A DNA stretch of 59,125 nt, filler included, from Sphacelaria rigidula (taxonomy: Eukaryota): the NCBI GenBank assembly GCA_964200075.2. It is 10 parts of 10 records of this genome, joined end to end, with 100 filler letters (N's around TTAATTAATTAA, not from the genome) between each part and the next. Parts side by side here need not be neighbours in the genome. Positions count along the whole stretch, not along the records: positions 23,693 to 29,515 come from CAXNAA020024192.1; 9 more parts are not named here. One strand, 5' to 3'. Below, one piece after another: positions 4,434-57,285 of this stretch. A program made the translations under genes and the position numbers. Within the stretch, counting starts at the first letter, position 1, and every line of letters begins with the position of its first letter. Under the pieces are notes generated by a model. It had not been told where the DNA came from, did no database searches, and saw only the letters and a list, made by a program, of their open reading frames with translations.

Positions 4434-4532
4434 CTTCGGAATGGGCACGTGGTTCGGAGCTACATCAAGCACGACAACGCGGTCACGTGCGTGGCTCTCA
4501 ACGACACCACCCCCTCGACCGCGGCCAGCTGA
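4434..4532 (+). CDS. LST8: LST8 terminal exon
   Basis: Polypyrimidine tract and cag|LRNGHVVRSYIKHDNAVTCVALNDTTPSTAAS*. The C-terminal CVALND motif is typical of LST8 and is in phase with the previous exon. Confidence 0.9.
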   Translation, partial: LRNGHVVRSYIKHDNAVTCVALNDTTPSTAAS

Positions 4533-5923: not shown

Positions 5924-6810
5924 CAAAAACGTCATTGGGCACCATTGCTGAAAGTGTGAGGAAAGCACTGTTTTAGGCTCGAACCTCATCTCGGAGTTAA
6001 ATCTCACTTCGCACAGTTTGTTGTTGATTGCTAACTGATAAATGATACTCCACAATATCACGATCGAGACTCTGATGTCCGCCTGTATTTCTGCATTCCA
6101 ATACCGTCAAAGGTAACCTAGCTATGCGATCAACATGAATTTTATTCGGTGCCAATCCCGTAGCGGCACTGACTAGATTGTTGTAGTTCATTTGGACAAG
6201 GGGCAGATGCAGGTCCCTGTCCATCTGTCTTTCATTCGCCACAGCAGCAAGCATCTGTGCCATCGTATGGTTCACTCGTTCCGTTCCAACATTTTTGGAA
6301 GGGTGATACGAACTAGTAAAAGTGCGATGGGCACCCAAAAGGTCACTGACTGCGGCCGAAAGTTTGCCTGAAAAATGCGGGCCGTTGTCAGACAGTAATC
6401 GTTTGGGCACATCCCACTATGGGATGTACATGTATACAAGAATGTTGGTGGTACCTTCCGTGTAATAGCTACTAGCAGGGACAGCGTGCATCACTGCATG
6501 CCGGCTAAATCTATGTGTAAACGACAAAATATACTTATTACCACTATCCGTCGGGAGCAAAGATCCAAAATAGCCCCACGAAACTACTTCACCAGGCCCG
6601 TTTGGGAGTGGCATGGAAACAATCGGCCAACGAACTGTTTGACGTGAAGTCTTGCGCGCTTGACACAAGAGACAACACCGAACCAGCCAACGACAACACT
6701 GATTCATACAAATCCACCAACGAAAACGTTCCAACAGCTGGGAGGTCCTGATGGCGCCCAAATGAGTCGATGCCTGTGAATGCCATTCGTGTAGAACCCA
6801 TGGGCTGTGA
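5924..6810 (-). mobile_element. Degenerate Ty3/gypsy integrase fragment
   Basis: HHCC zinc finger (H..ASTHLG...CLLCQ) and core motifs (LLSDNGPHF, SSYHP, GTERVNHT), with stops and frameshifts. Confidence 0.88.
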
Positions 6811-6923
6811 CAAAACCACGCCTTCACGTTGAGTATATGGTGATGATCGGATGATGGCTTGAGATTTTTAGTGATGACATGGATCATGACATGGACACAG
6901 GGTTGTTACCCTGATGTGGTTTA

Positions 6924-6940: not shown

Positions 6941-8333
6941 CACTCCGGGAATGATAAGGGTGTTGTGAAGGCTGACAACTGAGACCTTGAGGCCAGTGGA
7001 ACTGGGGAGTCCCTCAACAGCATTTGGACGCTGCAGTACTAGCAACCTGCTGGCGTCTCAATACCGATATTAGTGCTAGTCGTGCTAGTCGTGCTAGTCG
7101 TGCTAGTCGTGCTAGTTATGCTATCGTTAGGAGACTGCTCGAAAGTTTTCAGCAGGGAGGAGTCTGGACAGCTTGTGAAAGCTTAGGGCATATAGCTTCA
7201 CGGACGTGTGAGGAGGTTTCAAGCTGAGGTAGCTGCAAAGGCGGCTGGCCCGTGATTGATCCAGACTGGAGACTCGCTGGAGCTGCGCGCAGTGGGTGTT
7301 TATAGGACCCCAGGGCTGTGTGGAGCGGCGAAGAAGGCAGGTGTGAATAGTGAGTTCGAGAAGGTTCAGAAACCTTCGATTGTCCGCTCGAGAGTGTCGA
7401 CTATCGAGGTACCGGCGATAGAGCCAGTGGAGACGACTGTAACCCGGTCGTTCTAAGGGAAGAGTTGCGGCCGCCCAGTTACGGGAATATGTATTACGAG
7501 GATGCTTCTCGTTCGTTCTACACGAAATACGTGGAATACAAGAAGAGAGTGGAACATGCGAATGCGGAGGGTGCGGTAAGGCATTAGGTGGTTTCCATGG
7601 CGCAACTCGTGCCTATCCCCCTCCAACGCGTCTTTGCGAGAAGATTCCATGAAAAACATACCATAACGACGCTGCAATTGGCCGCGGCGATAAAGAAGCA
7701 TGCAGGGCATGCGGCGGGAGCGGAGGTAGAGCTAACACAGGCGTCCGCGACCGTGGCGAGGGCTGTCGCAATGAAACACAAGGGGAGGACCATGGGTGAG
7801 GAGGTGGAGCCCATGATGGGTAAGTTGGAGACATACTTCCAGGAAAATCCCAACATAGAGATGGTTTATCGTTCCTCCGATAGGAAATTCCGCCCAGGGC
7901 CTGCTGCGGTGATCACGAAAGCGATGGTAGAGGGTCTGGCACCGGCGGAATTCAAGCAGGCCGTGCGGGTGCAGTTACAGCACGAAAAAAACTAGAAGTC
8001 AGACCCGTATTTAGTTATGGATACCGTGGTGGCTGAAGCTCAGGAATGGCGGCGGGTCGAAGTATTCGGAAAATCATCCACTTCGTCGCCGCAGTCTTCG
8101 AGCTCGCGTAACCGCGGATCAAAACCCGCAGTCAGTACCGCCGCCAATATTACTTGCTATCAGTGTGGCCACGTAGGTCACATCGCACGGAAGTGACCAA
8201 CGCCTTCTGAGGGGGAGTCTGGGCAGACGAATGCCGCGTGCCCTCGCAATCACAAAGGAGGGAAAAGGGAAAGTAATCGGGGTGGTGGCGGAGGCGGATC
8301 CTCCAGCGGTGGAGGTGTACAGTCGAGTTTCCA

Positions 8334-8383
<50 letters not shown>

Positions 8384-11300
8384 GGCAGCGGCGTCAGCAG
8401 GGGAGCCTGCCGGATTTCAGCTAAAATCAGGATCCGCCGCTACGTCGGCCGGAGTACCGCTGCAATTTGGTTCTGCGGGCGGGGCTTCGTACCCGCCGGC
8501 GGTGCCGGTGACCCCAGCGGGGGCGTCTATGCCTGCGCCGCGCGCGCAGCCGTGACACGCAGTGGGGATCACGACCAATCAGTCGGCTGAGCAAGTGCCG
8601 GTCGAGTATCAAGACAATTATATCCCTGCAGAGTTCTATCTCCCCGATCAACGGGCGCGGGGAGCCATATCGGTCAACGCGGTGTTGGATTCAGGCGCCC
8701 ACTTCACGAGCGTGTCGGTGTTGATTGTGGAGAGATGCTGGAGCGTCTACTCTCCGGTGAGCAAATCCGAATTCCGTTCTCGCTCGGGGCGCGGCAGGCC
8801 ATCACCGCATCAGGCCAACGTATAAAAATGTGACGGAGTGTACGATTCCCCTACAGTTGGCGTTCCGGACTACCTGGGGGCCGGCGAAAGTACCCCCGAT
8901 ATCGTTTGCGATCATGCCGGGGACGAATGGTGTCGTTCTGTTGGGCTTACCGACGCTTCGGGGACTCGAAATCGATCCGTATGATCGGCTGTTAGAGTCC
9001 CTAAAAACGCAAATGCCGTCGCCCGGTTCGAGTGTCGAGACGCCTGCTTTTTTGGCAAGTCGCAGAGTGAGCTTGTCGGTTGATGCTCTCCAGGAGGCGG
9101 GGGGGCAGGTGTCCGAGGAGCGTTATGAGGCGGAGGAATGCTTGGTGAAGCGTGGCCCCGATATATTTATGGAGTCGGCGAAAGAAGAGTCCGAGCGAAA
9201 GGCTGCGCTTGAGGAAAGCGTGACGGATTCTGTGGAAAATGGCTTCAACGTCTCGAAAGCGGAGTGCTTGTGTGGCATATTGTATCGCCACGTGAACGCG
9301 TCTCGTCGTGCGCTGAGGGGTGATCCCCCTGCGCCCGTGGAACCCATGAGGGTTACACTGAAGCCAGGGGTGGCCGCGGTGAAGGCAAAACCGAGGAGGT
9401 ATGACCCGGTAAAGTCCACTTGGTTGGCGTCTTGCATGGGAGCTCTTGTGGCGTTTGGGTTGGCGTTCAGGAATCTACAGGCGGTGTGGTCCAGTCCAGC
9501 GATGACGGTGCCGAAGGACTCTTTCCGTCTTGTCAGCGATTACGGAGCCGTCAATGATCAGGTGGAGAAGCCGCCGGGTGTCATGCCCAATCAGGAATCC
9601 GACATGATAGACCTGTTGAGTTCGCGATGTTTCGGTAAGTTGGACCTCCTACAGGGGTACTGGTAGATGCCGTTGGCCGAAGAGGCGCAAGAGATATTCA
9701 CAATCACGACTCAGTTTGGCATGTTTACCCCGCAACGAGTACCGCAAGGCTTGTTGAATGCTACTTCCTTCTTTCAAGGAGTCATGGTAGACCTTTTAGA
9801 TGGCTGATATGCAAGATTTGGGTGGATAATGTATTTTTTTTCGCGGATACAGAAGGCGAACTGTTGGATACGCTTGATGCAATCTTGGCTCGCTTAGAGA
9901 GTGTTGGTCTGTTTGCAGCTGCCCACAAATGTACCTTTTTTGCTAGTGAACTAGTGTGGTGTGGAAGAGTATACTCACACGGCCGCGTCTCGCATGACCC
10001 GGTCTGCTTGCAAGGGTCGTCTGACATGCGGTGCCCAGAAACAGCAGTAGAACTAATGCAATTCCTGCATGCAATGAACTGGTTGCGTACCTCGTTGCCA
10101 CTTATGGCCGAAGTAGTGGCGCCCTTACGCGTTTTCCTAGAATAATTAATGGGGGGGGGGCTGCAAGGCGCACGAAGCGGGTGGCCAAAAATCGCGTTAT
10201 TCCATCCGCCTCGAGGACGGAGGGCAGGCTGCAGGCATGGGCGGCAGCGAAGGATCTGGTGGCTCATGCCGTGACGCCATTCCATCCCCGTCCCGGCTGC
10301 CAGGTGCTGATGTTTCCGAATGCATCCGAGTGTCATTGGGGTAGTATTGTAACGCAGGTGCCTGATGCAGAAATGCAACAACGGTTGCCGGCTGAAGACA
10401 TGACGCATGAAGTGCTGGCTTTTCTGAGTGGTGTTTTCAAGGGTTCACAGATGCGTTGGGCAACCATTGACAAGGAAGGTTTTGCTGTCGTGGGCACTTT
10501 TCGTCGTCTGGAGCATCTATTGTGGAATGGCGTACACATTTTCACGGATCACCGAAATCTAGCGTACATTTTCAACCCGGAGGCATGCGTGACGTCTGCG
10601 TCAAATGCGTTGGCACAGCGATTGGAGAGGTGGAAAGGTGTATTAGGATAGTATCGGTACAAGATTTGTCATATTTCGGGTGAACGTAACTCGTGGGTCG
10701 CGCTGGGTAAATACTCCCACTTTGCCTGCGCGCGCCGTGGCTGTGTATGGTCCATGCGAACCTGATGACTCGATGCCGTCCAAATCTGTCCCCCAAGCGC
10801 AACGAGAAGACCTTGGGACCGAAGATGCGGATATGCAATCTTTCGAGTCGGATGTTGGTACTGCTATCTTGGACAATGAAGGTCTGTTTCGTGTGCATGT
10901 GCGTGGCCGAAACGTTTTGTGGATTCCGAGTTCTGACAAGCAGTTGCAGGTACGTCTGATGATTTGCGCGCACATGCGCGACGCTGGGCATCGAGGTGTG
11001 GATGCGACGCTCGTGCGCTTGCAAGAGGTTTGTGTCTGGCAGGGGATAGAAACTAATGTGCGCGAGTTTGTCCGCCAGTGTCTCCACTGTGCTGACTCGA
11101 GGGCGGGAGATGTTGTTCCCCGCCCGCTCGGTGAAAGGGTCCATGGGATCACGACGAATAGAGTCGTTCATTTTGACTTCTTGCACGTGGCCGAGAGTGG
11201 CCCGCTAGCTTCCCAAGGTTTGTCGGAGGATGCTGGGTTCCGATACATTTTGGTAATCATGGATGATTTGAGCAACTTTATGGCTCTGGAACCAGTAGCA

Positions 11301-11746
11301 GTGTGTACTGCTGAATCGACTTCTGCGTCTTTGCTGAGCTGGTGCAAAACTTTGGGGGTGCCCGGTGTGTGGGTGAGTGATACCGCCACGCATTTCAAGA
11401 ATGCGATCTTGGCTCGGTTGCAAGAGGTTTTGCGCGTTGATCACCGGTTTGCGGTAGCGTATTCTCCGTGGTCTAATGGTACGTGCGAACGCATGGTAAA
11501 ATAAGTAGTTCGTGCTCTTCGTCCTATTCTTCTCGAGCAGCGTCGAGAGGCGACCGAGTGGGTGGATGTGTTGCCCGCTGTGCAATGGGCGCTAAATACA
11601 GCATATCGCCGTCGATACGATAGTACGCCGTATCACGTGATGTTTGGCCGTGCCCCTCGGACGTCTTTCTCGGTGCTGGCGTCCTCGTCGGCGGGGGAAT
11701 GGAAGTGTGATGTTCTGGACGATGTTCAAATTAAGAGTGCATTGAA
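6924..11746 (+). mobile_element. Degenerate Ty3/gypsy LTR retrotransposon internal region (gag-PR-RT-RH-IN), truncated by the contig end
   Basis: Zinc knuckle CYQCGHVGHIARK* (8155-8196), (CAG)15 at 8338-8382, protease AVLDSGA (~8680), RT (KLDLLQGYW, WVDN 9819-9830), RNase H (IFTDHRNL), integrase HHCC and VSDTATHF/NGTCER. The PR-RT-RH-IN order is gypsy-type. Many stops and frameshifts. Confidence 0.93.
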
Positions 11747-17594: not shown

Positions 17595-17855
17595 ACCCCC
17601 CCCCCCCCCCCCGACCCCGCCGCGAGGGGAGGGGTCGGAAGCGCGGGAGGCGGGTGTCCTACAAAAAAANNNNNNNNNNNNNNNNNNNNNNNNNNNNNNN
17701 NNNNNNNNNNNNNTTAATTAATTAANNNNNNNNNNNNNNNNNNNNNNNNNNNNNNNNNNNNNNNNNNNNACCATGTGGTTGACACCCTTAGCTAAAGGCA
17801 TTGGAAGCACCGCGGAGTTTCTTCTTCGGGAAGTATGTCGCCCCCCCCCCCCCCC

Positions 17856-17927
17856 GTGCTTCGTCCCGGCTTTGTAGGGATGCGAGGTCAATAGGCTTAT
17901 GTCTGTGGCATGCATAATCATGAGTAC
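17856..17927 (+). mobile_element. C-tract-associated retroposon family 1, short 5'-truncated copy; other copies at ~21900-22200 (+), ~25485-25592 (+), 27203-27650 (+), ~54366-54460 (-)
   Basis: Shared core CCCGGCTTTGTAGGGATGCGAGGTCAAT...ATCATGAGTAC followed by a C-run; variable 5' ends. Confidence 0.75.
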
Positions 17928-19982: not shown

Positions 19983-20889
19983 GTGCGTATGTCTCTATAG
20001 ATTATGACAGTACATGATGTATATGGTAACATAGAAGGACAGACCAGGGTTATCTGCCCACAACATCTCTTTCATTCTTCTCTTGGTGCTGCCGTACGCC
20101 GCACAGGTGTGTACTCTTCTTTGAATTGTGATACTTTGTGATTTACTTCCCTAAACCATGACAATATATGATGCAGGCGAGTGTTTTATGTCCACTGAAA
20201 CTCTCTCGCTCTTCTCTTCGTACTGCTGTACGCCATGCGGGTGTGCGTTGAAATGCGAGGTTACCCCGTACTTCACCCAATGTATGTCGCTGACGTCACT
20301 ACACTCGCCTCCGGCGGGTTATTGCCAATACCGGCGATTATTCAGAGCGAATACGAGGTCGGTTGGATGTCACGCTTACAGTGATTTCAAGAGTTATGGG
20401 TCCGAATGGGGGGCCTTACGACCTAAAGTCCACCCGACAAAAGGAATAGTAATGAACATGGAGGAACCATGAACACGTCAGTAGGTGGCCGAACCTGTGC
20501 CGAGGCTCTCACGGACAGAACACACACGTAATCACTTATTAACTTGGTTTACTATGGAACAGCTGTAGCACTCGAGGTCGCGCGGTTCTCGACACAGAAA
20601 GCAAGCCGGCCCACGGCACTTCATAGCCCTCCGCATATGCACAACAGCTAGGGAACCTGTTCACACATTTTGCTCAAGTCGCGACATTGGACCGGAAAAG
20701 CCCCCCAAAAGCCGGAAACGGGTTACTTTCGTATATTACGGGTTTTTACGGCTTAGTATCACCCGCAAACGCATCAAAGTAACTTGCGGACCTAGCTTGG
20801 GTGTGTGGGAAGCGCACGCAAGAAGCCGGAGTCCAATCCTCCTCTTCGTTGCCAAGACCTAAGCGTTGCACGATCAGCACAACAACATA

Positions 20890-21445
20890 CAGTAGTGGGC
20901 GGTCCAAGTATTCAAGTGTGTTTTGGGGTTTTCCCCGCGTACTACTCTTCGATAAATCTCGTAATTGCTAGCGTCGGCAGATTTTGACACTAATAAACAC
21001 ATCATCTTCGGAATACAGTGCCCAAGTCAGTATTAGTTGGTGTTATCAGGCGGAACGAGTAAATGCCCCCGTTCATCAGGAGGGTGTTATTATTGACCGT
21101 GAAACACAGGTTTTCGGCCCTAGTGCACTGAGTAGGCAGACTATAAAAAAAATGAAACTGTACATTTCTTTGAAAATATGATCGGGACGGGCTCGATCGA
21201 CCGAAAAATACAGAAGAGTAACAACCTGGGCTGAAACGTGGCAGGACCCCCGATGACCGGTCAGCCCGTAAGCCACTCAATATTGAGTACAGGTGATTTT
21301 TTCTCCTTGGAATGTGGAGCAGATACCAATATCTTCAGATCCCCGATTTGATGAGGGATGGCGAGCGAAAAAAGTCCAAGAAAATCCACAATTACGAAAA
21401 AATCACAAAATGCCACAAAGTGAATAGTTAGAGCACCCACTACTG
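20890..21445. mobile_element. ~555-bp Tc1/mariner-type MITE (copy 1)
   Basis: TA|CAGTAGTGGGCGGTC...CCCACTACTG|TA; homologous along its length to 24504-25056 and 50572-51127. Confidence 0.88.
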
Positions 21446-22213
21446 TAGTGCAACAATAGGGGCACAGCAACATCACAAGCAGCATTTTCTATCCTCCTGT
21501 TGTTGTGACCCTGTGTACAGGTGTACAACAACGTTAGTCACACGCTTGTTGTAGAATGTACTACAATAATAGTTTAATAGTACATTTGTATGAGCGTGAG
21601 CGTCCTTTCGAGGTGACGCGTGTATTTTTTATTGATATGGTTCGCCCGATTACGATCCAGTTATTACGCACCCAGCGGTCGGGGCGAACTTTCCCGATGT
21701 ATAGTACGCCAAATCGGCCCCCACTCCGACCCATAGCAGTGGTGTCGATACTCTCAACAATTCAGACATTGTTCAAGCGCCCGTCCTTGATTGTGTTCCT
21801 CGGTTGAACTTTTGGCTTATTTCTGGGACAGAACCCCACCGAGTTCCCTCTTTTTGTTGTGGTCGCCATCGTTCTCACCTACTCTCTCCACCCCCATGGT
21901 GAGATACCCATGAGGCAGTCAGTGTGACCCGTCGCTTGTGTCTGGAAGTGGCGATTCACTAGAAAAGAAGGTAACTCGGTCGAGGATGTCAACCATATGC
22001 AAGATAATTAGTACGCTTCGGACCGAACAATCTTAGTAGGATACGGGTCATCCTTTATGCGGCTCGCCGAACACGCCACGTCGCCTCGTGCTTGGTGATT
22101 GCGAGGCCTGGTACGGCGAAAATCCGGCGTGCTTCGTCCCGGCTTCGTAGGGATGAGAGGTCGATGATGTTATGACTACGGCATGTAGAATCATGAGTAC
22201 TTCACCCCCCCCG

Positions 22214-23592: not shown

Positions 23593-23966
23593 NNNNNNNN
23601 NNNNNNNNNNNNNNNNNNNNNNNNNNNNNNNNNNNNTTAATTAATTAANNNNNNNNNNNNNNNNNNNNNNNNNNNNNNNNNNNNNNNNNNNNCCGGCCCC
23701 CTCCAGGTTGCGGTGGGGTGGGTGGGGGGGGGGGGGGGGGGGGGGGTATTTTGGGGCATTTCTTCCACGAACCTCCACTTCAAATAGTCGTTGAAAGCAG
23801 CAACGGTTGTTCAAGAGCGCTTGTTACCTTTAGATATAACGCTTATTGATACCGATTGACTCCGTTTTGACCTATATACAAGTGCACCGCGAGTGTGTTA
23901 GGTCGTCTGACACACCCGTGAGCCCCTCTTCTCGTGGAAGCCAATATCCCCCCCCCCTATCGTAGC

Positions 23967-24033
23967 TGCTCCGTCTCGAAAGGGATGCGTGGTCAATGGT
24001 CAAATGACTAAGGCAAGCAACAAATGAGTACGC
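23967..24033 (+). mobile_element. C-tract-associated retroposon family 2 (LINE-like 3' end) with a 19-bp TSD
   Basis: CCCCCCCCCCTATCGTAGC at 23948-23966 and 24034-24052. The insert reads APSRKGCVVNGQMTKASNK* then GTACG. Confidence 0.85.
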
Positions 24034-24503
24034 CCCCCCCCCCTATCGTAGCGTACCCCCGTATCGTAGCATGGCTCTCACGTCCACGTCGCGTCTCTAC
24101 ACACTCCGTACCCTTTCACCGGGTGAGGAACTGCAAGCTGCACCCACCCACGTCTGGGTTAGATGAGCCACACCCGCTGTCCGCACGCCTGTGTCTTGTA
24201 TACATATTATACCTCTAACGGCTTGTACGGATCTGCTGGACCGGTGCGCTATACCGCAGGGGACAAGGAGACGGACGCTGCGGCTGCCGCTGGTAACTGC
24301 TTTCATTCTCATGTTTAGCACACTCTGGATGATGGCAATGCTTTCTATTGTCAAAAAGTGTACTGCGTACAGTATCGACTATTGCGCTTATTGCAACAAA
24401 CAATGGAATCCATATTGTACGCAGTACATTTTGTGACAAAATACAATTTTGTCATTATCCAGGGTGTGACGTTCAGCGCCCTCGTTTATATTCTTATATA
24501 ATA

Positions 24504-25056
24504 CAGTGGTGAGCGGCCTAACTATTTGGGGGTGTTTTGGGTATTTCCTCACGTATTACTCTTCGGTAGAACTCGGAATTGCTAGCGTCGGTAGATTTTG
24601 GTACAATAAATAGATCATCCTCGAAACATAGTACCCACGTCAGTGTCAGCTGGTGTTACCGGGCGAAACGAGTAAATACCCCGTTTATCAGAAGGGTATT
24701 ATTGACCGTGAAACACAGTTTTTCGGCCCTGGTGCAATGGGTAGGCAGGATTTCGAAAAAATAAAACTGTACATTTCTTGACAAATAAATATGATCGGGA
24801 CAGGTGTGATCGACCGAAAATACAGAGGAGTGAGAATCTGGGCTGAAACGTGGCAGGACCCCCGATGACCGGTCAGGCCGTAAGTCACTCAATATTGAGT
24901 GCAGATGATTTTTTTTCTTGGAATGTCGAGCGGTTACAAATATCTTCAGATCCCCGATGTGATGAGCGGTGGCAAGCGAAAATCGCCCGAGAAAATCGCC
25001 AATTACGAAAAAATCACAAAATGCCACAAAATGATTAGTTAGACCGCCCACTACTG
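24504..25056. mobile_element. ~555-bp Tc1/mariner-type MITE (copy 2)
   Basis: TA|CAGTGGTGAGCGGCCTAACTA...TAGTTAGACCGCCCACTACTG|TA. Confidence 0.88.
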
Positions 25057-25729
25057 TAATACAACAGTGATTCGAGACAGAAGCTGCGGCGGACGTGATA
25101 TAACTGTGACAATAATAATCTCTATTTCACACGAAAACGGAAAGAAATAGTTCGGTGGTTGTAGTGCGTAACGTTTTGGTACAACGTTCCTACACACATA
25201 CACAACCGTCACCATCTCTTCGCATCAACCTGTAAGATGACGTCACCAACCCCCATCCCCCTCCACAAGACTATACTTGGATCATGACACTGATTCAATC
25301 CACTACTCGCGTATCTAACCCGTTGACACTCCGGAAAATATTCAATATTTAGTAGTTACGATAGGAGAAAAATGGACCGCGTAAAGCGTAGGTCTATTGC
25401 AACTACAGACCACACCTCGTCTACAGTGTACACCCTTACCTTATAAGGAGCGGGGGTCATGAATACGCCCCCGCTCCCGCCTTCATGATTGATTGCGAGC
25501 CTGGTCCGGCGAAAACCCGGCGTACTCTGTCCCGGCTTTGTAGGGATGCGAGGTCAATGATCTTATGACTACGGTATGCAAGATCACGAGGANNNNNNNN
25601 NNTTTTTTGGGGTGGGGGGGAAATATTTTTTTTACTATCTTTTTTAAAATCACAGTATCCCCCCCCCCCCCCCCCCCCAGCCGCCACCTTTATAAAAAAA
25701 ATACACGTACACATTACCACAGACGAAGA

Positions 25730-25990
25730 CATTTTCTACGGTAGCCCCCCCCTGAAAGAGTGCCTGGTTTGGGGAAGCAAAATCTTCACGTAAATCGAAC
25801 TGCAAAAACCCGAGCACAACGAGCAGCTGGGAATTTCTACGCTTGGATTCGTTGTCGCCGATGTCGCCCATATAAGGCGCTTCATCTAGCCTGAACCCGA
25901 ACATCAGGCGTTGTATGTCCATATTTTTCGTGACACTTTTGGGCTGATTTTTTTTGGGGGGGAGGGGGGCTATCGTAGTGTCCGAAGCTA
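25730..25990 (-). repeat. Unclassified dispersed repeat; other copies at ~32280-32540 (+) and ~51130-51290 (-)
   Basis: Shared sequence translating as IQRLMF.FRL..AP.MGDIG.NE.K..NSQL. Confidence 0.65.
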
Positions 25991-27202: not shown

Positions 27203-27650
27203 CTAGCCAATCAGATTACCGGTTATTTTCTCGCTAGCGTTTTTTTTGCGGTAACCATGATGGGTGGTCGGGCTAGATAATATTGTGCGGGGCGGGAAAA
27301 TCTCAACTCCACGCGAAGGGGATGATCGTACTACGTGGGGGTTAAACCGCGAGACACTCGTGAGGCAGCGTATGAGTCGTTCCTGTCTCTGGAAGCGATG
27401 ATACCATAAAATGAAGTAACTCTTTGTAGACTGTCATCCACATGCAAGACCATCAGTACGCTTTGGGTCGTACAATCTTCGCGTGATGCAGGCCACCTCC
27501 CCATGCGACTCGCCGAACACATCACGGCGCTTCGCGCTTGGTGATTGATTGCGAGCCTGGTCCGGCGAAAACCCGGAGTGCTCCGCCCCGGCTTTGTACA
27601 GATGGGAGGTCAATGATCATATAACTACGGCATTCGAGATCATCAGTACA
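27203..27650 (+). mobile_element. C-tract-associated retroposon family 1, longest bounded copy
   Basis: Flanked by CCCCCCATCACAAG (27189-27202) and CCCCCCAACACAAG (27652-27665); homologous to ~21900-22200. Confidence 0.7.
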
Positions 27651-29382: not shown

Positions 29383-29676
29383 CTGATATGTATATTGTTA
29401 CCAATTTATTTTGTTTTTTGAGGGAGGGGAAGCGCAGGACGGGGACAGCGGGGGAGGGGGGGGGATACGGTGGGGATAGACGGGGGAAAGACAAGAGGTA
29501 CAGGAATGGGAGGGGNNNNNNNNNNNNNNNNNNNNNNNNNNNNNNNNNNNNNNNNNNNNTTAATTAATTAANNNNNNNNNNNNNNNNNNNNNNNNNNNNN
29601 NNNNNNNNNNNNNNNAAATCATTTCGGATCATCCTTGAATGCCCGCTTTACATTTGGGTATGGTTTAGCATGCCAC

Positions 29677-29709: not shown

Positions 29710-29975
29710 TTGAACGAAGATGGCAAGGAATCGTTTGGTGCACTAGATAGAAGAGAGAAAACGATGGCTATACTAGAAAATATATATGGTGGTCGCAGAC
29801 GGCGAAACGGGACGGGGATAAGATATGTAAAAAGATTTTTTGTGTAGTGTATGGAAGAAACGTAATGAGCATCCAAATGTTGAGAGGTCTCTACTAGGAG
29901 TACAAACGGTGCTCCGTCTCGGAAGGGATGCGTGTTTAATGGTCAAACGACCGAGTCAAGCAACAAATGAGTACG
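29710..29975 (+). mobile_element. C-tract-associated retroposon family 2, longer copy (LINE ORF C-terminus-like)
   Basis: Degenerate coding FGALDRREKTMAIL...CSVWKKRNE...GAPSRKGC...SNK*. Both flanks are (C)n followed by (AC)n. Confidence 0.75.
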
Positions 29976-30375: not shown

Positions 30376-33035
30376 GTAAGATGCGGCTTCGATTTTTTCC
30401 TCGTGTTTGTGTGTGTTTTTTTTTTAAGTTATGCAATATTCGTATCAGTGGTGATATAAGGTAGCGAGAAGCATGCTCTAAGGCCTACCATGAGGTTATA
30501 GTGAGTCAACATATCACCACGGAGAATCAATGACTTGTTGAAAACGATTTTCTCGGGTTTTTGGTTGCCGAGACTTGACTTGATCGCTGTGAACGCTTGA
30601 TTTCTGAACTCTGGGGTCGAGAGGTATTGTATTCGTGCCCGGAACAAAATTCGTGAGCATGGACAACATGATTCAAATACGTCGAAGATCAACGTTAGAC
30701 GACTCGCGGGGTTAACCGGTCGTCGAGGGACCGATGAGTACACATCGACGAGGTTCTGACTGGTGGACATTTCCGCTCGATTCGAATCAATCCCGATAGT
30801 TGTTGGTGAAGAGTCGTCCGCGCTCTGCCGTTGTCATTTGTAAGATACAGCCGAAGAACCGCCTTTTGAACCAGAATACAAGTTTTGGCGCGCCTTGTGA
30901 TGATGCGAAGACGGGATTTCTAGCCATGTCTCCTCGACGACGACCCCACCAACTTGAAAAGTTTTCCACGCGGGCGACCTGCTTCATTGTAAATTGTTTC
31001 ACCGATTCCTAAACCTTCAAAAATGGAAATGAAGATGTAGTGACAGAAATGAATACCTTTTCATACTGCTTTTTTTTCTGGCGCCTGAAGTGCAAACCGA
31101 TCGAGATCGCATATTTTGGCCCTTCGATAGCGTGGTTCGGGTGAACGGACGGCAAGGCGGGTGGGTTATCCCACCTTGGAGTAACTTGCCCGTATATCGA
31201 AGAGTATTTCAGCACGCGTTTACGTCTTGGTTTACTGTGTCGGTCGGTTCGATTTTTTCTGCTCCTTCCATTTTTTTCATCGAGTGTTTCCGGTTTATTT
31301 TTTCTTGGGGTACGTTTATCATGCGACCGGCTGGATCCCGGGGGGGTCAGTTGAAGTGCGACAAAATCAATCAAATCAATCAGTCGACAATTTTGTTGAG
31401 ATGAAGGTGAACTGTGGGTTGAGCACATACGCTCTTTTTGGCTTTACTAGGTGTAGGTGCTGTTGTTTGTTTGTTTGTTACCTTCAGCTGCTATTTCAAC
31501 TTGTTTCATAAACTTCTTGTATCTGTGGTACAGGCCTATTATTTGACAATATCAATCAAAATATATATTCAAATGTCGTCATTAGTTTGGGTCATTAACT
31601 TCGGCTTACTTATCAAGAGTTTTTTTGTAGGGTAAAATATTCATTTTGTGTTCGACGTCAAGATCAGAAAAAACTCCCTGTTGATTTCTTTTTTCAAGTA
31701 GTGATGTTATCGCAATAACATAGCAATGTTGTACATGTATATACTCAGTCATTTGAGGTCTTTCGTAGGTTCGATTGTGCACTTGCGATAGTTGAAACTG
31801 CACACCGATAAAAAGCGCAGACTTTGTGTGCACTTTCGTGAATATATATATATATATATATAAATATATTTTTTATATGTTTTCATCGAAGAAACGAGGA
31901 AACCTGTAGAGTAGTCCACCTCCAGTACACGTACGTGCAGGTTCATGATGATCTACAAGTGGAAATATCTGCTGTAGGCGTTTTCTATTGGTTGACGGAC
32001 TTGCGAGTCTGATCGGCACACTATGTGGATTTGAACATCACATGCTTCACGCATGTAGTTACTTCCGATAACGAAGGCTGTGTGTTGATGAAGAACAACT
32101 GTCTTGAAGTCTCCAGGCCCTAGTGAGGGAGGAAGCCCTTGGAGCAATCTTGTGACCTTGTTCTGAGTCCAGAAGGGCTCTATAAACCTCACCCAACACG
32201 TACCCGGCCAATGGGTTCTCGTGCCCATCACCCGGAGGCTCAACTTGACCACCGTGAGGCGGTCACGATATTTTCTGGGATAGCCCTCCTCCCCCCCCAA
32301 AAAAAAACAAACAAACAGCCTATAACTGTCACGAAGGAAAGAGTCATACAGCGCCTGATGTTTCGTTTCAGGCTGCATCAAGCACCTCTTATGGGCGACA
32401 TTGGAGAAAACGAACTCAAGCATGGGAATTCCCAGCTCGTTGTGCTCGTTTTTTTTTCATTTTGATTCACGTGTAGATTTTTCCTCCCCAAACCAGCCAT
32501 TTTTTTTTCTCGGAGGAGGGGGCTATCGCAGAAAGTGTCTGATATGGGGTACGCGCCTCTCGAGCGTTCGAGAAGGCTTGCTCAAGGCGGTGTGGGAGTC
32601 GAACCCACTATAATAAAGTCCTCTGTCGAGTTGACGCAGTGCACACCCCGACCTACAGTTGCTCGCGTCAAATTCGGACCTAAAAGGTTCGTACGTCATT
32701 GTGTATTGTGCACGACTTCATTTTGTCTTCACCCAGTGTCGAGCTGCAAGCACCAAAAACCGTTAACACCACAGAATAACTGGAATCCTCTCAGATTGTG
32801 AAGCAATTCATTTTGGGGTGGTGGCGTAGCCCGCCTCTCGCCTTCTATTTACCCGGGAAACGGTGAAGAAATAAATACCCACGTTCGATCGCTTTGTGCT
32901 TCTGACCCCATGGGAAGTGGTGTTACGCGAACTAATCGTTCAAACGTTGACTACTGTTGTAGCTTATCCACCGGTTGCATCACGTGCGCGAAAGACTTGA
33001 GTGTTTCGTAGGGACTGATGCCGTGATAGAGGGGG

Positions 33036-33185
33036 GGGCGTACTCATTTGTTGCTTGTCTTGGTCGTGTGACCATTGATCACGCATCCCTTTCGAGACGG
33101 AGNNNNNNNNNNGCACCGTTCCTACTCCTAATAGAGACACCTCCAACGTTCCGGCGCTCAGTACGTTTCTTCCATATATTACACA
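33036..33185 (-). mobile_element. C-tract-associated retroposon family 2 copy with a 12-bp TSD
   Basis: TGATAGAGGGGG at 33024-33035 and 33186-33197. The minus strand reads CNIWKKRTERRNVGGVSIRSRNG[gap]PSRKGCVINGHTTKTSNK*. Confidence 0.82.
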
Positions 33186-33716
33186 TGATAGAGGGGGAAG
33201 GGGGGTGACTCCACGGGAAACAGGGGTGAGGTGTGTCGGACGACCTAACGAACCGCGGCGCGTTATATTTGTCTAGAAACGATGTCTTACTGGTAGTTAG
33301 CGTGTTCGAACTAACGTTGCTGCTGTCAACAAGGATTTGAGGTGGAGAATTTCGTGGGGGGAACGGCCTTGGCTACCCTCCTGCCCTTCCCCCCTATCGT
33401 GATATCACTCCGGGCTCTTGAAAAAAATACGCAAATTTCTAGCTCAATGCCGTTCGAAGCACACGAGGAGTATAGCGCGCTGCGACGTGGTATTGTCCGT
33501 TGTTTCGGCGCAAGAAATCTCACGAGGAGTTCCTTTTTTACCGCGAAACGGACCATTGTTTCGACGATTGCCATGAGTAGTCAACAACATGTGAGAACCG
33601 AAGTCCTTCAATTCGTGTGTGATGCCAAATCACCCAGTAGCGTCAGCACGGTTGAGGGCAGAATGACTTGCCCTTTGAGCGCCGACGACCAGAACGTTTT
33701 GAAGCCTCCGTGAGTA

Positions 33717-36487: not shown

Positions 36488-39450
36488 GGGGGAGGTACTT
36501 CTCACCGGTTGTTCGTGGCGTCTCTCTTCTTATTTTTTCTTTGGTAATGTGTTTTGTAAGGAGTAGCAGGGACGGTGTTGGAAAGGCGAGCCTACGTCTG
36601 TGACCATGGGCTCGCGAGATCGGACTAATGTGCGGAAGTAGTTAGTAAGGCGTCTTGCTGGTGAGCCTGCCTTCGTCTTCCCTTTAACCATCACTCCGTA
36701 CATGACGATCTTGGGCAGGCGTTCATCGTGCATGCCCACAACGAGGCCGGCGTGTGGGAGGGCTCGTGTCATCACGGTGGCCTCGATGCACTCGCAGCTA
36801 CTTCTTTCGAGGACCTCGTGGTATGGCAGCATGTGGTAGTCAGGGGCGCTGCGGCTTGAGATATGCTCATTGAGGCATCTCAGCAGGAAACCTCCATGGG
36901 CGTCCCGTAACGCGCCGAAATTATCGTGTGCAGTCGTCCAGGTCACGCAGTCGTACAGCATTACCTCGATCACTTCAGTCTTCAGGAGTCAAACCTTGGT
37001 GGTCAGGGCGATATTCGGGTTGCCGTTTATCACTTTGCTGTGTTTGCTTGTAGAAGCACGTCCAGGTCTGGCCAATGCGGCTGTGCGTTACAGGAGTAAC
37101 ATCGTCGATGCTGCTGAATATTTCGCCAAGGCAGAGGACATACTCAAATTGCTTGTATGTTTGACCCGCTGTCTCCACCTCGACCGCATCCGCCTCCATG
37201 CTCGGGGAGCGCATGTGCATGACGACCGTCTTCTTCTCCGCCACGACGAGGCCAAATGCTGTACATACTTCGACGACGACAATCACCATTGCCAGGCGTA
37301 CGTAGACCGCGAGGCGATGCCAGCATCGTCGGCGTATAGCGTTGTCCTGAGCTTCCCACCCCTTTCAGCGATGGTGATAAAGTCCTGCGCCGCCGCTTTA
37401 TTGATGGAGAGGCGATGGAACGTCACCGTTAGCGCTGCTGCGAACAAGATGCTGGACAGACCGGGGGAAATCGTACAGCCTTGGCGGAGGCCCTGGTTAA
37501 CGTCCAACCACTCAGATGTCTCGCCGCTGTTAAGGTGTACGCATGCCCGTATGCCGTCGGGGTACTGGCGCATGATGGAAATCATTTTGGCGGGAATACC
37601 GTAGGGTGCTAGAACTTACCAGAGAAGAGGGCAGTCCACTGAGCCCCATGGATTTTGGAGGTTGATGATGAAGCACATATACAGAGGAAGATGGTTCTCC
37701 GACCAGTTCTGGTAGCCTGTGCACAACGAACATCATGTCGACTGTCGACCAGCCAGATCGGAAACTGTATTGCGCTTCTGGGAGGATCCCCTTCCACTCG
37801 TAGTAGGCGCTGAGGCGAGTCGTAACTATCTTGAGTACCACCTTGCCCGCGTGGAACCCGAGAGAAATACCGCGGTGGTTGCCGCGTTCGTAGGGTCCCG
37901 TTCCTTGAAAGAGCGCTACTTACTGACGCCACACAGTGAGCAAGATGTTGTGGTGGCACTTCGTTATGGCAGAGTCTTCGGTGCGGCCGAGCGTTAATAG
38001 TTCACCACAGATGCTGTCCGCCCCAACGGCCTTGCCGTTTGCCAGCTTGCTTCACTTCTTCCATCTATGGCTCGGCTGCGAGTGGTGCGTGCTCCAGCAT
38101 CTGTTCGACGAGATCGATGACAGTGGTCGATCGTAGGCCAGGTTGCGTTTAGCAGTGTTTTCAACCATTCCTTCCATCGTTGCAGGATGGCGTGCTCGTC
38201 CCCGCAACAGCTCGCCAGTCGCGCTCCTGACGTATGTTGAGTCGCACTGCTTCTTCCCTTCTAGTTCCAAGGGCTTGGTGTACTGGTACGGTCCTGCTAT
38301 TCTCCATTCCCTGTTTCGGTTGGTGGCTGGGACCAGACGATGGTCCGATTTCATCTTGGGGTGCACAGTGATATTTCGGATGAGCCTGAGGTTCTGCTCA
38401 CCAATAGGATGTAGTCCAGGCGCCAGCGGTGTTTGGCCTTCAGTCCCGCATACGTGTATGCGGTCGAGCTTTCCCCGCGAGAGCTGTTCGAAAAGATATG
38501 TCGGTGATGGCCATTTTATGCTCCGCAGCGCATTTTAGTTGGTGTCTACCATTATCATTCAAGGTGTCTCTGCCGTACTCCCCCCATACCCGAACGTCAT
38601 CCGTCCCTCCTTCTTCGCTATTTCTGGCACGAGCGTTGGCATTCATCATGAGAACCAGGTGCTCGTTGGTTGTTATTTCAACGATGGAACCGAGGGTTTC
38701 CCAGAACTTGGTCTTTTCAGAGTCTTGTGCTGTCTCAGTAGGAGTATACCCTACGATGAAGATTGTTGCAACTCCCACGTGATCGACGGCGATGGCTTCT
38801 GGACCCAGCGTGTTGGTGATGGACTCCTGAATGGCAAGGTCGACTCCGAGCATTTCCGGTTTACACCCGTCTCCGTTGTAGTGGCATCGATGTATCCTGC
38901 TGCTGGTGCGTGGAGGGTTGTATGTCCATCGCGACGGGTTTCTTGAAGGGCGACGAAATCCCAGTTGCATTTGGGCGCAAAAAGCAATAGGTCCTCTGCG
39001 TGGCCGGTGCCGTTGGGACCTTCCTCGGTAATGGTGCGTACATTTCAAGTGGGCATTATCAGCTCTTAGGATCGAGACACCACCCTTGCTGCAGCGCGAT
39101 TGGCGCGAGCCTGCACCTTGACTGCTCGCCGAGCTGGTCTTCCCCTTCTTCTCTTCCTACGTAGTTCATTATCCCTTTCCTTCTGGGGTTTGATCCAGCA
39201 TTCGTGGGACACTCTGCGTTCCCACGTGTTTTTCTGCCCACGCTGGTTCTTGCCTCTTCGTTACTGCGCGAGATTCAGCGGGCCCCGCGCACGTCGACCT
39301 CCACCAAGCCGATCTTTACCCTTACACGCATACCCCTGGCTGCCCTTAGGCAGCAATGTTTTCGGCGGTGACGACGATTAGTCGAATCAGCGGCTCCCAC
39401 CGGCTGGAGTAGGGCGTGTTCAAATATCATCGCCGTGTAAGAGCAAATTC
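36488..39450 (-). mobile_element. Degenerate LINE (RTE-like): APE endonuclease + RT
   Basis: T*NVRT (~39050), WDFVALQETR, MMNANAR and SDHRLV (APE); LPEAQYSFR..STVDMMF, QGLRQGC.ISP and LYADDAG (RT). Many frameshifts; ends approximate. Confidence 0.9.
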
Positions 39451-41969
39451 ACTGGTCAAAACCACCATATGGTGTAGTAATGCCAGCGCGATGGGCATTC
39501 AACCCCACACCACGGTGGCGCGGAGCAGTTCGACGGTGGGAATTACTCTCCGCACAAGCCGAGCGTTGTATCTTTGCAGGGGCTGCTGACTTAGCTGGCT
39601 TAACCCGGCCTCGGTAGTTCGGGTCGACGGTGGGGGAAGGGTATCGACTGTATCACGAGTGGTGAACACCGTATGGCTTATGCGTTCTGGTTTTTTATTG
39701 ATTGATTGTCGAGCTTTTACTGTGCGTGCAGGAGCACTTTGGCAGTACGAGTCAACCAGCTCCCGCACGGACGTGGTACAGAGTAGATTGAAAGCAGGGG
39801 TCATTGATGCTCCGTACTAGCTATGCTGTGCCTTCCTTGGGCCACTGCCGTCAGCTGGCCCGATCCGGCCTTAGCTGCTGGGGGCCGAGGCCGGGGAAAA
39901 GGATATGTGTCCCGAACCACCCCTACCCCCCTCCAACATGCACAATGATCTGTAGAAGTTGGGATCCCCAGTTATTATAATGGGGTACCCCTACACCGTA
40001 AATACTCGCCGGAAATTTCAACAAGGGCGGCGATGTGGATATCGGATTCTTCGCGAGAGCGCTTTCACAAGATCATTGTAACTTCATTGCACCCACGACT
40101 TCACTTACGAAGACTGACGGCTTATCGATGTGGTGCGAATAACTTCAAAACATTCCCAACATCAAATAGCAATTACAAGTGAATTCTGGGGGAACATTTT
40201 CCCCCTCGTGTTCTTCCTGTCACTGGCGATTTGACGTGGATCAGTTTTCACATCAACTGTTTGGACTAAAAAATCCAACAACCGTCTTTTGAAAACTAAT
40301 GTCAACATACAGTGGGCTGTTTGATTCGTCAGCCGGCAGCTATCACTTCGGGAGTCGAAACAGACCGAAAGGAAGGTGTGGTATAATTGATTAATTGAAA
40401 TTTAATCACGCTTTCCCGAGGTCAGTACCATACCGTAGAGTACAGTTCAACAATAGTGAGATACAGAGAACACTGCAAGTAAGCGTACAGGACAGTTCTA
40501 TCACTACAGTAGGTTATACGAGCGTGTGGTGTGAATGTACATAGCACAGGGTGTGTTCCTCCATGACATTGTCTAACTGAAGGATCACCGAGCAGCTCCT
40601 GGCGTGTATGGCGTATCAAAGCACAAATATTGGTTTTTACTCTTCGAGATCGAGGTTCGTTTGCCACTTGGTAAGAGTGGAAACTTTATCGAAATATTCA
40701 ATTTCGAATAACCCTAACCCTAACCCTAACCATAGGGCTTTTCAAATTCCGATGCGGTCCTATAAGCACACGGTCCTCTCACGCATTACAATGACGGGGG
40801 TGGGACTTGAGTGTCATGATTTTGCACCTAATACTCGCAGCGTTCGAATTTTGTGATTCGGTGTGTTTAAATGGTTTGACTAAAAGAGTTCGGCGTTGAT
40901 CCCGCTTGCTTGCGAAACCGGGGGGGTTTTGGTTCTCGATTTTACACTTGAGAATAATGTTGTAGCAGGGGGGCTGGAGTGCTGTTGAACATTTCACTTG
41001 ATAGTGTCTTGATACTCAAGCAACAATACGAGCTGGACCAGCAGAGAGGCGGATTTGAAGTTTGCAGGCGAGTGCGCCGGCCAATATTTAGAGTTGGAGC
41101 GTAAAATTCGGTATGGGCAATGCACAGGGTATAAAACAAAATATTGAATAAGCACCAGAGGTTGTTTTTGTCGTGAGTTAAGGGTGATATACTTAATAAC
41201 TCACGAAAAAAACAACTTTTAACAACCGATCCTAATTTTTGGGGTTGAAACGAAAAATGAGGTTGCAGTGAGTCATCATACAATAGGGGAGGGGGGGTAT
41301 TTGGTTGCACGAAAAAAGAGGCTCATAAGTGTGTCAGACATCCTTCCACAATTCAGTTGNNNNNNNNNNNNNNNNNNNNNNNNNNNNNNNNNNNNNNNNN
41401 NNNTTAATTAATTAANNNNNNNNNNNNNNNNNNNNNNNNNNNNNNNNNNNNNNNNNNNNCTCTGGTGATATCGTCATCGACACGCGTGTCCACCGCATTT
41501 CGTTGGGTGCACCTAGCCAGAGTTACTTAACCCTTGGACCGCGGTGCCCGTAGTCCATCTGGACCACGCGTGTACTTTTTTCAAGTGGATATTGATGCTG
41601 ACTGAGCAGGTGACCTACTCTCGCGGTCTAACGGGTAACTCCTGCTGCGGAGGTTTGGGAAGGAAGATACTTTCGCTCTCTTACTCTTTCGTATCTTCCC
41701 TGCAATAGAGAAATGGGACTTCAACCTCATTTTTTGTTTCAACCCCAAAAATTAGGATCGGCTGTTATTTCAGTACATATCACTTGTTTTCCCCTGTACT
41801 GGACGCTGGCTTTATTCTTTTAACGCCATCACCAGCAGTAGCCACGCTTGCCAGACACACCCGATGTGCACAGCTCGCACAAAGAGATGCGCACAGCTAG
41901 ATCTACTAGCACATAGCCTGGGGAGGAAGCATTGACTCATGAGCGGGCAGTACGGACCAGCGCTTTCCG

Positions 41970-50529: not shown

Positions 50530-50571
50530 GCCCCCCCGAGAAAAAATCCTGGTTTGAAGAGGCATAATCTA

Positions 50572-51127
50572 CAGTAGTGGGCGGTCTCACTATTCATTTT
50601 GTGGCGTTTTGTGCATTTTTCGTAATTGGCGATTTTCTTGTGCTCTTTTTGCTTTCCACCGCTCATATCATCGGGGATCTGAAGAAAACTGTATCCACTC
50701 CTGATTCCAAGAAAAAGAAATAATCTCTACTCAATATTGGGTGACTTACGGGCTGACCGGTTATCGGGGATCCTGCCCAGTTTCAGCCTAGGTTCTTACT
50801 CTTCGGTATCTTCGGTCGATCGAGCCTTTCCCAATCATATTTGTAAAGAAATGTACACTTAAGTCTTATATTTTTACGAAGTTTTACCTTCATTGCGCTA
50901 GAGCCGAAAAATTGTGTTTCACGGTCATTAACACCCTCCTGATAAATGGGGGTACTTACTCGTATCGCCTGATAAAACCAACTAACATTGACTCGGGCAC
51001 TGTGTTTCGAAGATGATCTGTTTATTGTACCAAAATCTACCGACGCCAGCAATTTCGAGTTTTATCGAAGAGTAGTACGCGAGGAAAACCCCAAACCACC
51101 CCAAAATAGTTAGACCGCCCACTACTG
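50572..51127. mobile_element. ~555-bp Tc1/mariner-type MITE (copy 3, inverted)
   Basis: TA|CAGTAGTGGGCGGTCT...AGACCGCCCACTACTG|TA. Confidence 0.88.
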
Positions 51128-52231
51128 TACGTGCGAGCACACGAAGCAGCTGGAACTTCCCACGCTCGGGATCATTTCCGCCAATCAACATCGTCCATCT
51201 GAGGTGCTTCACGCAGTCTGAAACCAGCCATCACGCGCTGTATGGCCATTTTTTCAGTGAGAGACAGTTTGGGGCTGGTTGCGGACGAGCGTGATCGTGG
51301 CAAACAGTGTTTTCGTGAGGTTGAAAGTAGAGCACTGATTGTAAGTGGCTTTGATATTTTGCTTTAACTTAGCTAATTTTTCATTCCGTGTGTGCTCTTC
51401 TTTGCCTGTACCACTGGCGTGTACTTACAGCTACACGTCGATATCCTACTCGGGCATATCAAGGGCTTCAGTGGCAAGCAAGTCCAGAAAGCATAGCGGG
51501 CCTCGTGGAGGGGCATTTCGGAACTGAAACGATTCATTCCCTAATTGACCGTTTTTCACTCTCAGTTCTGTCCTTTACTTTCAATCTCACGAGAACATTG
51601 TTGGCATCACTCGTCGTCATTATTTCCTCTGCTTGAAGCTGTGACCCCCTTTTTTTCTTTGCCACACTTTGAATCCCTTTTCTTCTTCGGGATGAGTCCG
51701 TACTCAGTTACTCACGCTTTTGACAGTGGAAATCAGATTATTCGAAAAACAACCCAGCGCCTTAGGAATCGAACCGACGTTCTCTCCACCTTAATGATGG
51801 CAGTCGGGCAATTATCAAATCAACCCGACGCGGCGGCCGTAGTGGAACGGAATCTAACCTAGCGAGCTTCCCCTTGGCTTCCCCTGCTGTGGTGTGGATT
51901 GCCAAGCTCGACGGGTTGAAACATTGCTACTCCGAGGACGTGCGGGATGGCGGGCTCCGCCCTACCGATCCCCTTCGCCTACGGTGCATGGTTTGTGTAC
52001 CTGTCCTGGGTACCACAAAGAAATTTGACTTGACGCGGTCGACGAGGGACATGGGGACCGCCGAGCCCTCTCGCGATAAAATCTAAGGCGAACATCGCAG
52101 AAGAAAGGAGGAGTGCTGGAACAAGTAAGCAAAGATCCCTTTCTGTGTTGATCTTCCTCCTGCGTGACATGGCTGGTACGTCCGCATATTATACCGAAAG
52201 GTGTGGACTGGCGTCCGGAATAGATGGTATG

Positions 52232-55850: not shown

Positions 55851-57285
55851 CCCCACGTGTTGTTTTAGGCCCAACAAAATCCCATTCCCTCCCACCACTC
55901 AGCTGTCCAACTGTCGGGCCCTGGCCTAGAGGGCCAGTCAGTCCATGGGGGTCTGCGGTCCGCGGATCCTCCGTTCATCTGCTGAAAGCGCCTTGCTCGC
56001 GTCCTTCAGCAGGTCGCACTCGAGATGCTCTCGGTTCGCCAACTCGTGCGGGGGCCTCCTCGCGGCTTTTTTCTTCGCCGCTGCCCCCCCACCCACCCCT
56101 TGATCCTGACCCTATGTAACCAGGTCCCTCAAGTCTTATATGCTGTCTCGTAGGTGATGGTTCTCCTTGAGAAGCCATGATTCAAGGTGTCTTAAGGTGT
56201 AAAAGGACAGCTACTCGCTCCTACTTCACACCCGGGCGTAAACATTTTGTCACAGGTGATGAGCTGTACTATCAGCCTGCTGCGCTAGCGTATCCAGCGA
56301 TCAGTGCCTGCCCCGGGCAGGGCGTTCTCAATGAAGGACAAGATAGTGCTGGGGAACGAAAGGAAGGGAACCTAGGTGGAGATCACCGCTTGGCCCACCC
56401 GATCTTTGTTTATTAGGAATCTATCTCCGTCTGAGACGTTTCAACTCTTTATTCAGAAAGATTTCGGAACACAGTATAGTAACGAGATTCATCTAGAAGT
56501 CTCGTATATCATAAGCGTCCAAATATGATATACTACAATACCAAGACATTCACCGCGTTATCGAGATAAAATCGCACAATACCTTCGACGATAATGTTGA
56601 TGTTGTAGCGGTAACTGATCGAATCCCCTACATGACCCCACCCCTTGCCTAGGTTCCGCGCACCATCATTTCCTTTCTGCCATGAGTACCTGTGCGCGTA
56701 CATGGCGACGATTGTAGTATGCGGCGACCATCATGCCGCAGCAGAGGTTTATTCGTGCTCACGACGATGATTCCGTTTGCGCCGAATTTTGATCAATTTT
56801 TTCGAAGGGGGAGGCGGACGTGTTGACTGTGTGATGCCGCATTTGCCACCCTCCCCCGATACATGACGAGCAATGCTACGGTAGGGGTACACTTTTTCGC
56901 GAAATATTGTCTAGTTCAGGGGTTCCTAACGATTCTAGATGCACAAGAATATGGGTCAGGGCATCCTCGTTTGCAAATTCATTCGGGATATCCCCAGCAC
57001 ATTGGAGTAGTAATTCTGGCGTACTTTTACATATTTTCATCGGTCATGTTTTGCATGAGATAAAGGGCTCCTAACAATTCTTACCTCAGAAAATATTTGT
57101 GTACCCCCACCGCAGCATCACTCTGACGCCCAAACACAAATTTGTCCCATTTTTTTCGCGTTCAAGTCTACAAGCGCAGTCACCGCCCTGCCTACAAGAG
57201 TGATTGCATCTGTTGCAACTCAACTGTGAGCGCGATAATCGCCGACGCAGACTAATCGTTTTTTCCGCAAAACTATTCACAACAG

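Follow-up and report, generated by a model that had tools for sequence, protein, structure and literature searches.

From the perspective of its mobile elements, the window (the whole 59,125-nucleotide stretch of Sphacelaria rigidula DNA that was analysed) contains three truncated copies and a stub of a LINE that ends at a run of C, several copies of a shorter non-coding partner (family 1) and the MITE-like host repeat in which the first LINE copy sits. The features discussed below, including the target-site duplications (TSDs), are the following.

23712–24077, no strand assigned: host MITE-like repeat, about 250 bp when empty, with TIRs that contain G/C tracts and a left end that is degraded here
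23948–23966, plus strand: 5' TSD of copy 1, the 19-bp C10-TATCGTAGC, which is the original C-tract of the right terminal repeat of the host MITE
23967–24032, plus strand: copy 1, the 65-nt LINE 3' unit plus a terminal G, encoding the final 19 codons with their stop and belonging to the 64–67-nt peak class
24033–24052, plus strand: 3' side of copy 1, a C11 run and the 3' TSD copy (24034–24052), identical to the 5' one
24053–24070, plus strand: additional GTAC-C5-G unit in which the target tag occurs a third time (read by eye), possibly a second, tail-only insertion
29710–29975, plus strand: copy 2, a 266-nt 5'-truncated LINE flanked by C18(AC)8 on one side and an imperfect C-rich/(AC)n stretch on the other
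33039–33185, minus strand: copy 3, a truncated LINE of about 147 nt with an internal 10-N gap, in a copy of a similar host repeat
41265–41350, minus strand: paralogous host-repeat end that is empty and has one C-tract
54371–54461, minus strand: family 1, non-coding partner with the LINE 3' module and C-tail
54474–54492, minus strand: LINE 3'-end stub with C8 after it, adjoining the family-1 copy
near 17855–17925, 22096–22200, 25486–25590 and 27542–27650: other family-1 copies

All four LINE copies listed in an earlier note on this DNA were located with positions agreeing to within 3 nt, the 3-nt error being the 3' coordinate of copy 3. The 18-nt 3' end that they share matches the 244-Mb genome (G000) exactly at 4449 sites, against none for the reversed control, and is therefore not a product of chance. 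The reading frame described in that note (...APSRKGC..NG..TK.SNK, then the stop) is kept in the copies, with GTACG after the stop codon, so that the 3' UTR is only 5 nt long, and the C-terminus encoded by copy 1 is identical to the end of an intact relative, P0002, in 19 of 19 residues. The C-led direct repeats claimed around the copies are exact in copy 1 (19 bp) and in copy 3 (12-bp CCCCCTCTATCA, at 33197–33186 and 33035–33024) and imperfect in copy 2, while no convincing TSD was found at the locus of the stub (~54492–54474).

Other features were observed in the window alongside these copies. MITE-like repeats with C/G tracts in their TIRs also occur at 25727–25974 and 32279–32540, and a repeat of about 570 bp is present in three copies that are 82–84% alike (20887–21455, 24501–25066 and 50569–51132). 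Degraded LTR-retrotransposon-like pol fragments at 7588–11504 (plus strand) and 5997–6905 (minus strand) show RT, RNase H and integrase motifs in their ORF translations. A different degraded APE-RT LINE, perhaps of an RTE family, lies at about 36500–39200 (minus strand) and gives weak tblastn hits to P0002 and P0027. The exon of an ERCC4-domain gene, presumably MUS81-like, at 57239–58120 (plus strand) matches only Ectocarpus, Pylaiella, Laminaria and one unlabelled eukaryote, which places the host among the brown algae. Finally, the N-runs at 29516–29615 and 41460–41360 that enclose TTAATTAATTAA are scaffold gap markers and not biology.

Each of the window copies is a 5'-truncated insertion of a LINE of about 5.8 kb from a brown alga, with a single ORF that comprises an APE endonuclease, an RT and a CCHC motif (CxC...E...H...C). 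With a 267-nt copy as query, 3766 first-look candidates were retrieved and 40 scored, among which 30 loci share the 3' end and reach between 250 and more than 1750 nt upstream. Extension of the longest copies, which the earlier note had proposed, led upstream through the RT and an APE-like region to a common 5' start. In degraded copies, Pfam reports RVT_1 (E 1e-11) and, below the cut-off, Exo_endo_phos_2 (E 0.0026). One locus (L041) spans about 5.8 kb and the other long copies carry indels. Six copies have this 5' start in common, each with a C-rich stretch before it, and after it come 7–12 units of a 63-bp tandem repeat (seen in L049, L057, L051, L041 and L047), possibly a promoter array. 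No intact ORF was found in 28 long stretches of the S. rigidula genome, all of them degraded, the longest stop-free piece being 330 aa; intact relatives encode a single ORF of 1328–1360 aa with APE and RT domains and the same C-terminal peptide.

The fixed 3' end, the variable 5' truncation, the TSDs of variable length (8–20 nt) and the union of APE endonuclease and RT in one ORF are those of a LINE, and neither LTR nor TIR is present. The canonical (CAA)n tail of the RTE clade (Ectocarpus RTE-1/2) was not found, nor was the GIY-YIG nuclease or pseudo-LTR of Penelope-like elements, in place of which there are an APE-type domain and a LINE RT. The sequence beyond the C-run is unrelated between copies, so the consensus does not continue there, and an origin of the copies as the internal part of a larger element or of a TIR was ruled out. 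Ectocarpus proteins (CCAP 1310/34) are 64–71% identical and form two sister clusters. In a tree of 29 hits, which held no named RTEX reference, the element is separate from proteins with C-termini that we take to be RTE-like.

The molecular aspects of insertion were read from the first 100 of the 4449 exact matches, of which 7 lay too near a contig start and were dropped, leaving 93. In the 90 with a clean 3' flank, the next base is G in 73, a C4 run follows within 12 nt in 81 and an A5 run occurs within 20 nt in only 2, which agrees with the proposal of a LINE that lacks poly(A) and ends at a C-run, and not with an L1-type poly(A) tail and T-rich nick. A TSD of at least 8 nt, with at least 3 non-C letters, is present in 22 of 72 scorable copies, a 10-fold excess of C-led target duplications over 20 shuffled pairings (mean 2.05, maximum 4); with a threshold of 12 nt, there are 11 copies against 0.1. 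The other 50 of the 72 have no TSD of at least 8 nt, a count that weighs against the model preferred below, and these copies may be old, nested or inserted in C-only targets. Within the 30 nt upstream, 47 of the 72 copies have a C5 run, compared with a background of 3.4%, and 3, 4 and 2 copies have G5, A5 and T5 runs, respectively.

That the C-run is joined directly to the element and opens the TSD, as the earlier note held, is borne out by these junctions; that it is nothing but TSD, with no tail, is incomplete. Among the 22 TSD-bearing copies, the target carries a run of at least 3 C in 21, and the 3' segment has at least 3 C more than the target in 5 (in the extreme case, 14 against 3), so that both a C-rich target and some C supplied by a template tail contribute. 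In 10 of them the target has the longer pure C-run and in 8 the two runs match to within 1, and most copies therefore need no tail beyond what pairing would use. The same counts bear on another explanation, in which the endonuclease itself would be specific for G-tracts or G-quadruplex-prone DNA, the 3' C-run would be mainly copied target and tail pairing would be secondary. This explanation, which is compatible with the preferred model and which we regard as quite possible while short of an even chance, accounts well for the C-run in nearly all targets, for a 3' run no longer than the target run in 18 of 22 copies and for two loci, L065 and L096, with almost no C after the element end. It accounts poorly for the copies with surplus C and for the relatives described below, which switch tails freely while keeping the protein. 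At the 5' junction of L065, ten extra bases resembling TTAGGG telomere repeats lie between the TSD and the 61-nt copy, and the junction of L096 shows a short duplicate of the 5' bases of the element.

Paralogous sites in the same genome reveal the state before insertion. The part of the host MITE to the left of 23948 has 1531 first-look candidates in the genome; 25 of the 40 listed were taken and, after removal of the window copy itself, 24 were read by eye at the tract equivalent to that at 23948. Fourteen are empty, with a C-tract present once and running straight into the terminus, 7 have been filled independently with this LINE family or with family 1, and 3 are unclear. The C-tract thus precedes the insertion and is a hot spot. 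The further proposal that the element could be generating the many C/G tracts of this genome did not hold: of 45,686 C/G runs of at least 10 nt, 2272 (5%) directly follow the end common to both families (control, 3), and C-tracts are built into other repeats. This 5% is a lower bound, given that 5' TSD copies and decayed ends go uncounted, and the element does not emerge from it as the main source. What the element does is duplicate and lengthen tracts.

Family 1 is about 440 nt long, with 2909 exact matches in the genome. It carries A in place of G before the C-run, and its 3' end is closer to that of a second LINE family (L149). Its homology with the LINE begins at a defined base, which coincides with a boundary found by counting 5' ends in the LINE copies. 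In 80 copies with a usable 5' end, 12 end at 19–58 nt, 13 at 59–63, 30 at 64–67 and 22 further upstream; expressed otherwise, 30 of the 52 copies that reach 64 nt stop at 64–67 nt, and the per-base truncation hazard is 0.144 at the peak compared with 0.001–0.007 below 59 nt. Genome-wide counts of 18-mers fall from 4449 to 3380 over the 47 nt from the end and from 3380 to 1273 in the six nt further upstream. The most frequent upstream loose ends in Logan contigs of two further organisms are at 65 and 63 nt from the end and have C-rich flanks (146 and 124; 63 and 43). In RNA contigs (X15) the final 65 nt are covered more deeply, a depth that cannot show expression, and a raw-read run from a distant organism (X21, 54 reads) was uninformative. 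Taken with the shared boundary of family 1, the excess at 64–67 nt points to a 3' recognition module of about 65 nt within the coding sequence that would have been inserted alone.

A peak of this kind could in principle arise from short-read assembly or from the calling of boundaries, since the genome is in 27,214 contigs, 7 of the first 100 matches lie too near a contig start and collapse could steepen the drop past 67 nt. Copies of 19–58 nt are, however, equally detectable and yet rare (12 in 40 positions, against 30 in 4), a TSD sits at the boundary in 16 of 40 short copies, the 18-mer drop is steep over 6 nt and slight over the 47 nt before and the same boundary recurs in the contigs of both other organisms, which together make an artefact very improbable. 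A separate mini-SINE, propagated from few master loci and not a repeated product of the LINE RNA, is a rather unlikely origin of the class. It would fit the lower divergence of short copies (means of 1.7 and 4.3 differences in 41 nt for short and long copies, n = 43 and 20, p = 7e-5) and the tandem joints reaching back 65–75 nt in other organisms, but young long copies may have collapsed in the fragmented assembly and so produced the age gap, one C/T variant segregates among short (12 of 44) and long (5 of 22) copies alike and no shared head or promoter lies upstream. A separate subfamily for the short copies was rejected, no diagnostic base having been found.

In its predicted secondary structure, the 65-nt unit of L146, L148 and window copy 2 forms two hairpins within a closing stem of 6 bp. 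The GUGCUC/GAGUAC stem closes the minimum-energy fold in these three and in three family-1 copies, whereas window copy 1 and L149 fold otherwise, L149 favouring another pairing, and the folding z-scores of the module are weak (-0.2 to -2.2). The first hairpin stays paired in five lineages that differ by one two-sided and three one-sided changes, its loop measuring 4–13 nt (by eye); the closing stem shows no covariation among the sequences compared. An HDV-like ribozyme was ruled out, by eye and against the topology of such ribozymes, as the cause of the boundary, because the only partner of the 5' strand is the extreme 3' end.

The stem has a bearing on how the RNA might acquire its C-run. CCA-adding-type enzymes can make poly(C), and the RNA could be cut after the unpaired G/A that follows the 6-bp closing stem and then be C-tailed by a host nucleotidyltransferase, with the 65-nt class resulting from a cut at the 5' base of the stem. 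Such a pathway would fit a stem that leaves G/A-CCC unpaired and a truncation peak that lies at its 5' end. Against it stand the absence of covariation, the divergent folds of L149 and copy 1, the weak z-scores and the lack of a tRNA-like elbow. Genomic C-runs, moreover, suffice as a template, and family 1 keeps the stem without showing the peak: none of 30 family-1 copies (L226–L255, with lengths inflated by C-runs settled by eye) has its start at the corresponding base, which also counts against a simple module-boundary rule. Enzymatic tailing is therefore judged improbable.

The tails of relatives offer a different perspective. Of 80 metagenome loci listed, 35 that reach the C-terminal region were examined. 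The three closest relatives listed (88, 75 and 51% protein identity to P0002, the last being the second family, L149) end TGA-GTACG-C8-10, and the tail of more distant relatives is (CT)n, (CTA)n, (ATTT)n, (TAA)n, (TTCA)n or (GAA)n, in several cases after the same TGAGT. With tails so variable, the C-run looks like the one-letter case of RTE-type microsatellite tails. Distant relatives with non-C tails (L151, L164, P0008 and P0012) have a similar C-terminal VNG-type peptide and, close to the end, the corresponding DNA motif, a hint that the 3' signal may in part be older than the C-tail.

The earlier note had attributed insertion at C/G tracts to target-primed reverse transcription, and the C-led TSDs, the 5' truncation and the pre-existing C-tract uphold this. 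The model that we favour, and consider highly probable, is that the copies are 5'-truncated insertions of an RTEX-type LINE made by target-primed reverse transcription through pairing of a C-tail with a G-tract. The protein encoded by the ORF would bind a folded module of about 65 nt that overlaps its own last codons, and nicking by its endonuclease would fall on the G-rich strand, within or next to a G-tract. The C-run of the RNA, probably transcribed from the tail of the source copy itself as with RTE-type microsatellite tails, would pair with the freed G 3'-OH and prime reverse transcription. A second nick a few bases past the tract would generate the TSD, slippage in the C:G hybrid may alter the length of the run and the 65-nt class would be the module inserted alone. 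Besides the copies that have no TSD and those whose C-run calls for no tail, the weak z-scores of the module, the closing stem with no covariation, the different pairing of L149, the missing peak in family 1 and the lack of an intact ORF in the 28 long stretches weigh against this model. A bolder extension, which we put forward tentatively and think rather unlikely, places the whole cis-acting signal within the last 20 codons and makes a protein-protected, C-tailed 65-nt RNA with a defined 5' end the commonest inserted product. Such a discrete RNA could arise, for example, via ribosome stalling and 5'–3' decay, which would explain the missing peak in family 1, as family 1 is untranslated.

If so, nature would have supplied, in this unit, a minimal template for reverse transcription that is primed on G and targeted to C-tracts, as well as the seed of the partner SINE-like families, and a self-sufficient template of 65 nt would be useful for LINE-based gene insertion. 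A LINE that primes on G rather than on T/A also provides a clean natural test of the RNA tail against the nuclease in the choice of site, and this test can be run because public data contain intact relatives. In genome annotation, the C-run copies of 20–70 nt, which number in the thousands, are easily mistaken for simple repeats and masked.

Several known systems share parts of this arrangement. In human L1, to which PDB matches were obtained, a homopolymer tail pairs with a complementary nicked target and the TSD begins with the homopolymer; L1 differs in its use of A/T and polyadenylation, in its two ORFs and in its relaxed RNA recognition. Among RTE-clade LINEs and SINEs with microsatellite-like tails, the first TSD base is the repeated base of the 3' tail, and tail pairing or tail-guided cleavage has been proposed (PMC6007223). 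Those tails are given, in the part of that source available, as A- or T-rich, such as (CAA)n and (GTT)n (PMC6007223), whereas here a pure C homopolymer overlaps the target over a long stretch. In the stringent LINEs ZfL2-1 and ZfL2-2, the ORF2 protein recognises a 3' stem-loop that is also present in partner SINEs (PMC4176376); the candidate module described here differs in being almost wholly coding sequence, and its recognition by the protein is predicted. The Chlamys Penelope-like elements, with an unrelated GIY-YIG nuclease and RT, show an insertion bias to (C)n and (CA)n and are a precedent for C-tract targeting (PMC8557442).

The closest counterparts are RTEX-1a, -1b and -2_Ec32 of Ectocarpus sp. 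7, with a single EN-RT ORF and lengths of 5511–5867 bp (Dinatale et al. 2025, PMC12477816). RTEX-1/2_Ec32 are tabulated with "(C)n 3'" or "(C)n termini/TSD" and C-rich TSDs (PMC12477816, supplementary table MOESM3); a discussion of the C-tail was not found in the main text as available, the supplementary entry being its only mention there. A literature search that was thin on subscription journals and Repbase Reports returned no other C-tailed LINE, no such truncation peak and nothing relevant on slippage or microhomology in RTE elements. The C-tail and C-rich target were hence already on record for Ectocarpus, and the novelty claimed for the family does not stand, the earlier note having itself named a prior description as grounds for refutation. 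The accessible part of the Ectocarpus account (PMC12477816) gives no target analysis, empty sites, mechanism or 65-nt class, and neither a study of the mechanism nor a 65-nt class was found elsewhere in the literature searched. The element appears to be of the kind annotated as RTEX-1/RTEX-2, an assignment made by description and by homology to Ectocarpus proteins. It differs in its species and in the age of its copies, which are old (about 80–85% alike), and resembles the published families in its brown-algal host, its single EN-RT ORF, its 5.5–5.9-kb length, its (C)n 3' end and C-rich TSD, and its two sister families with thousands of mostly truncated copies. The non-autonomous RTEX-N1/N2_Ec32 have 60–100 bp of 3' end in common with their LINE (PMC12477816). 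RTEX-N1 (604–607 bp) and RTEX-N2 (188 bp) differ in length from family 1 (about 440 nt) and RTEX-N may be in tandem; by description, family 1 is likewise a non-autonomous partner with C-rich TSDs, joined to its LINE by a common 3' end of about 60 bp.
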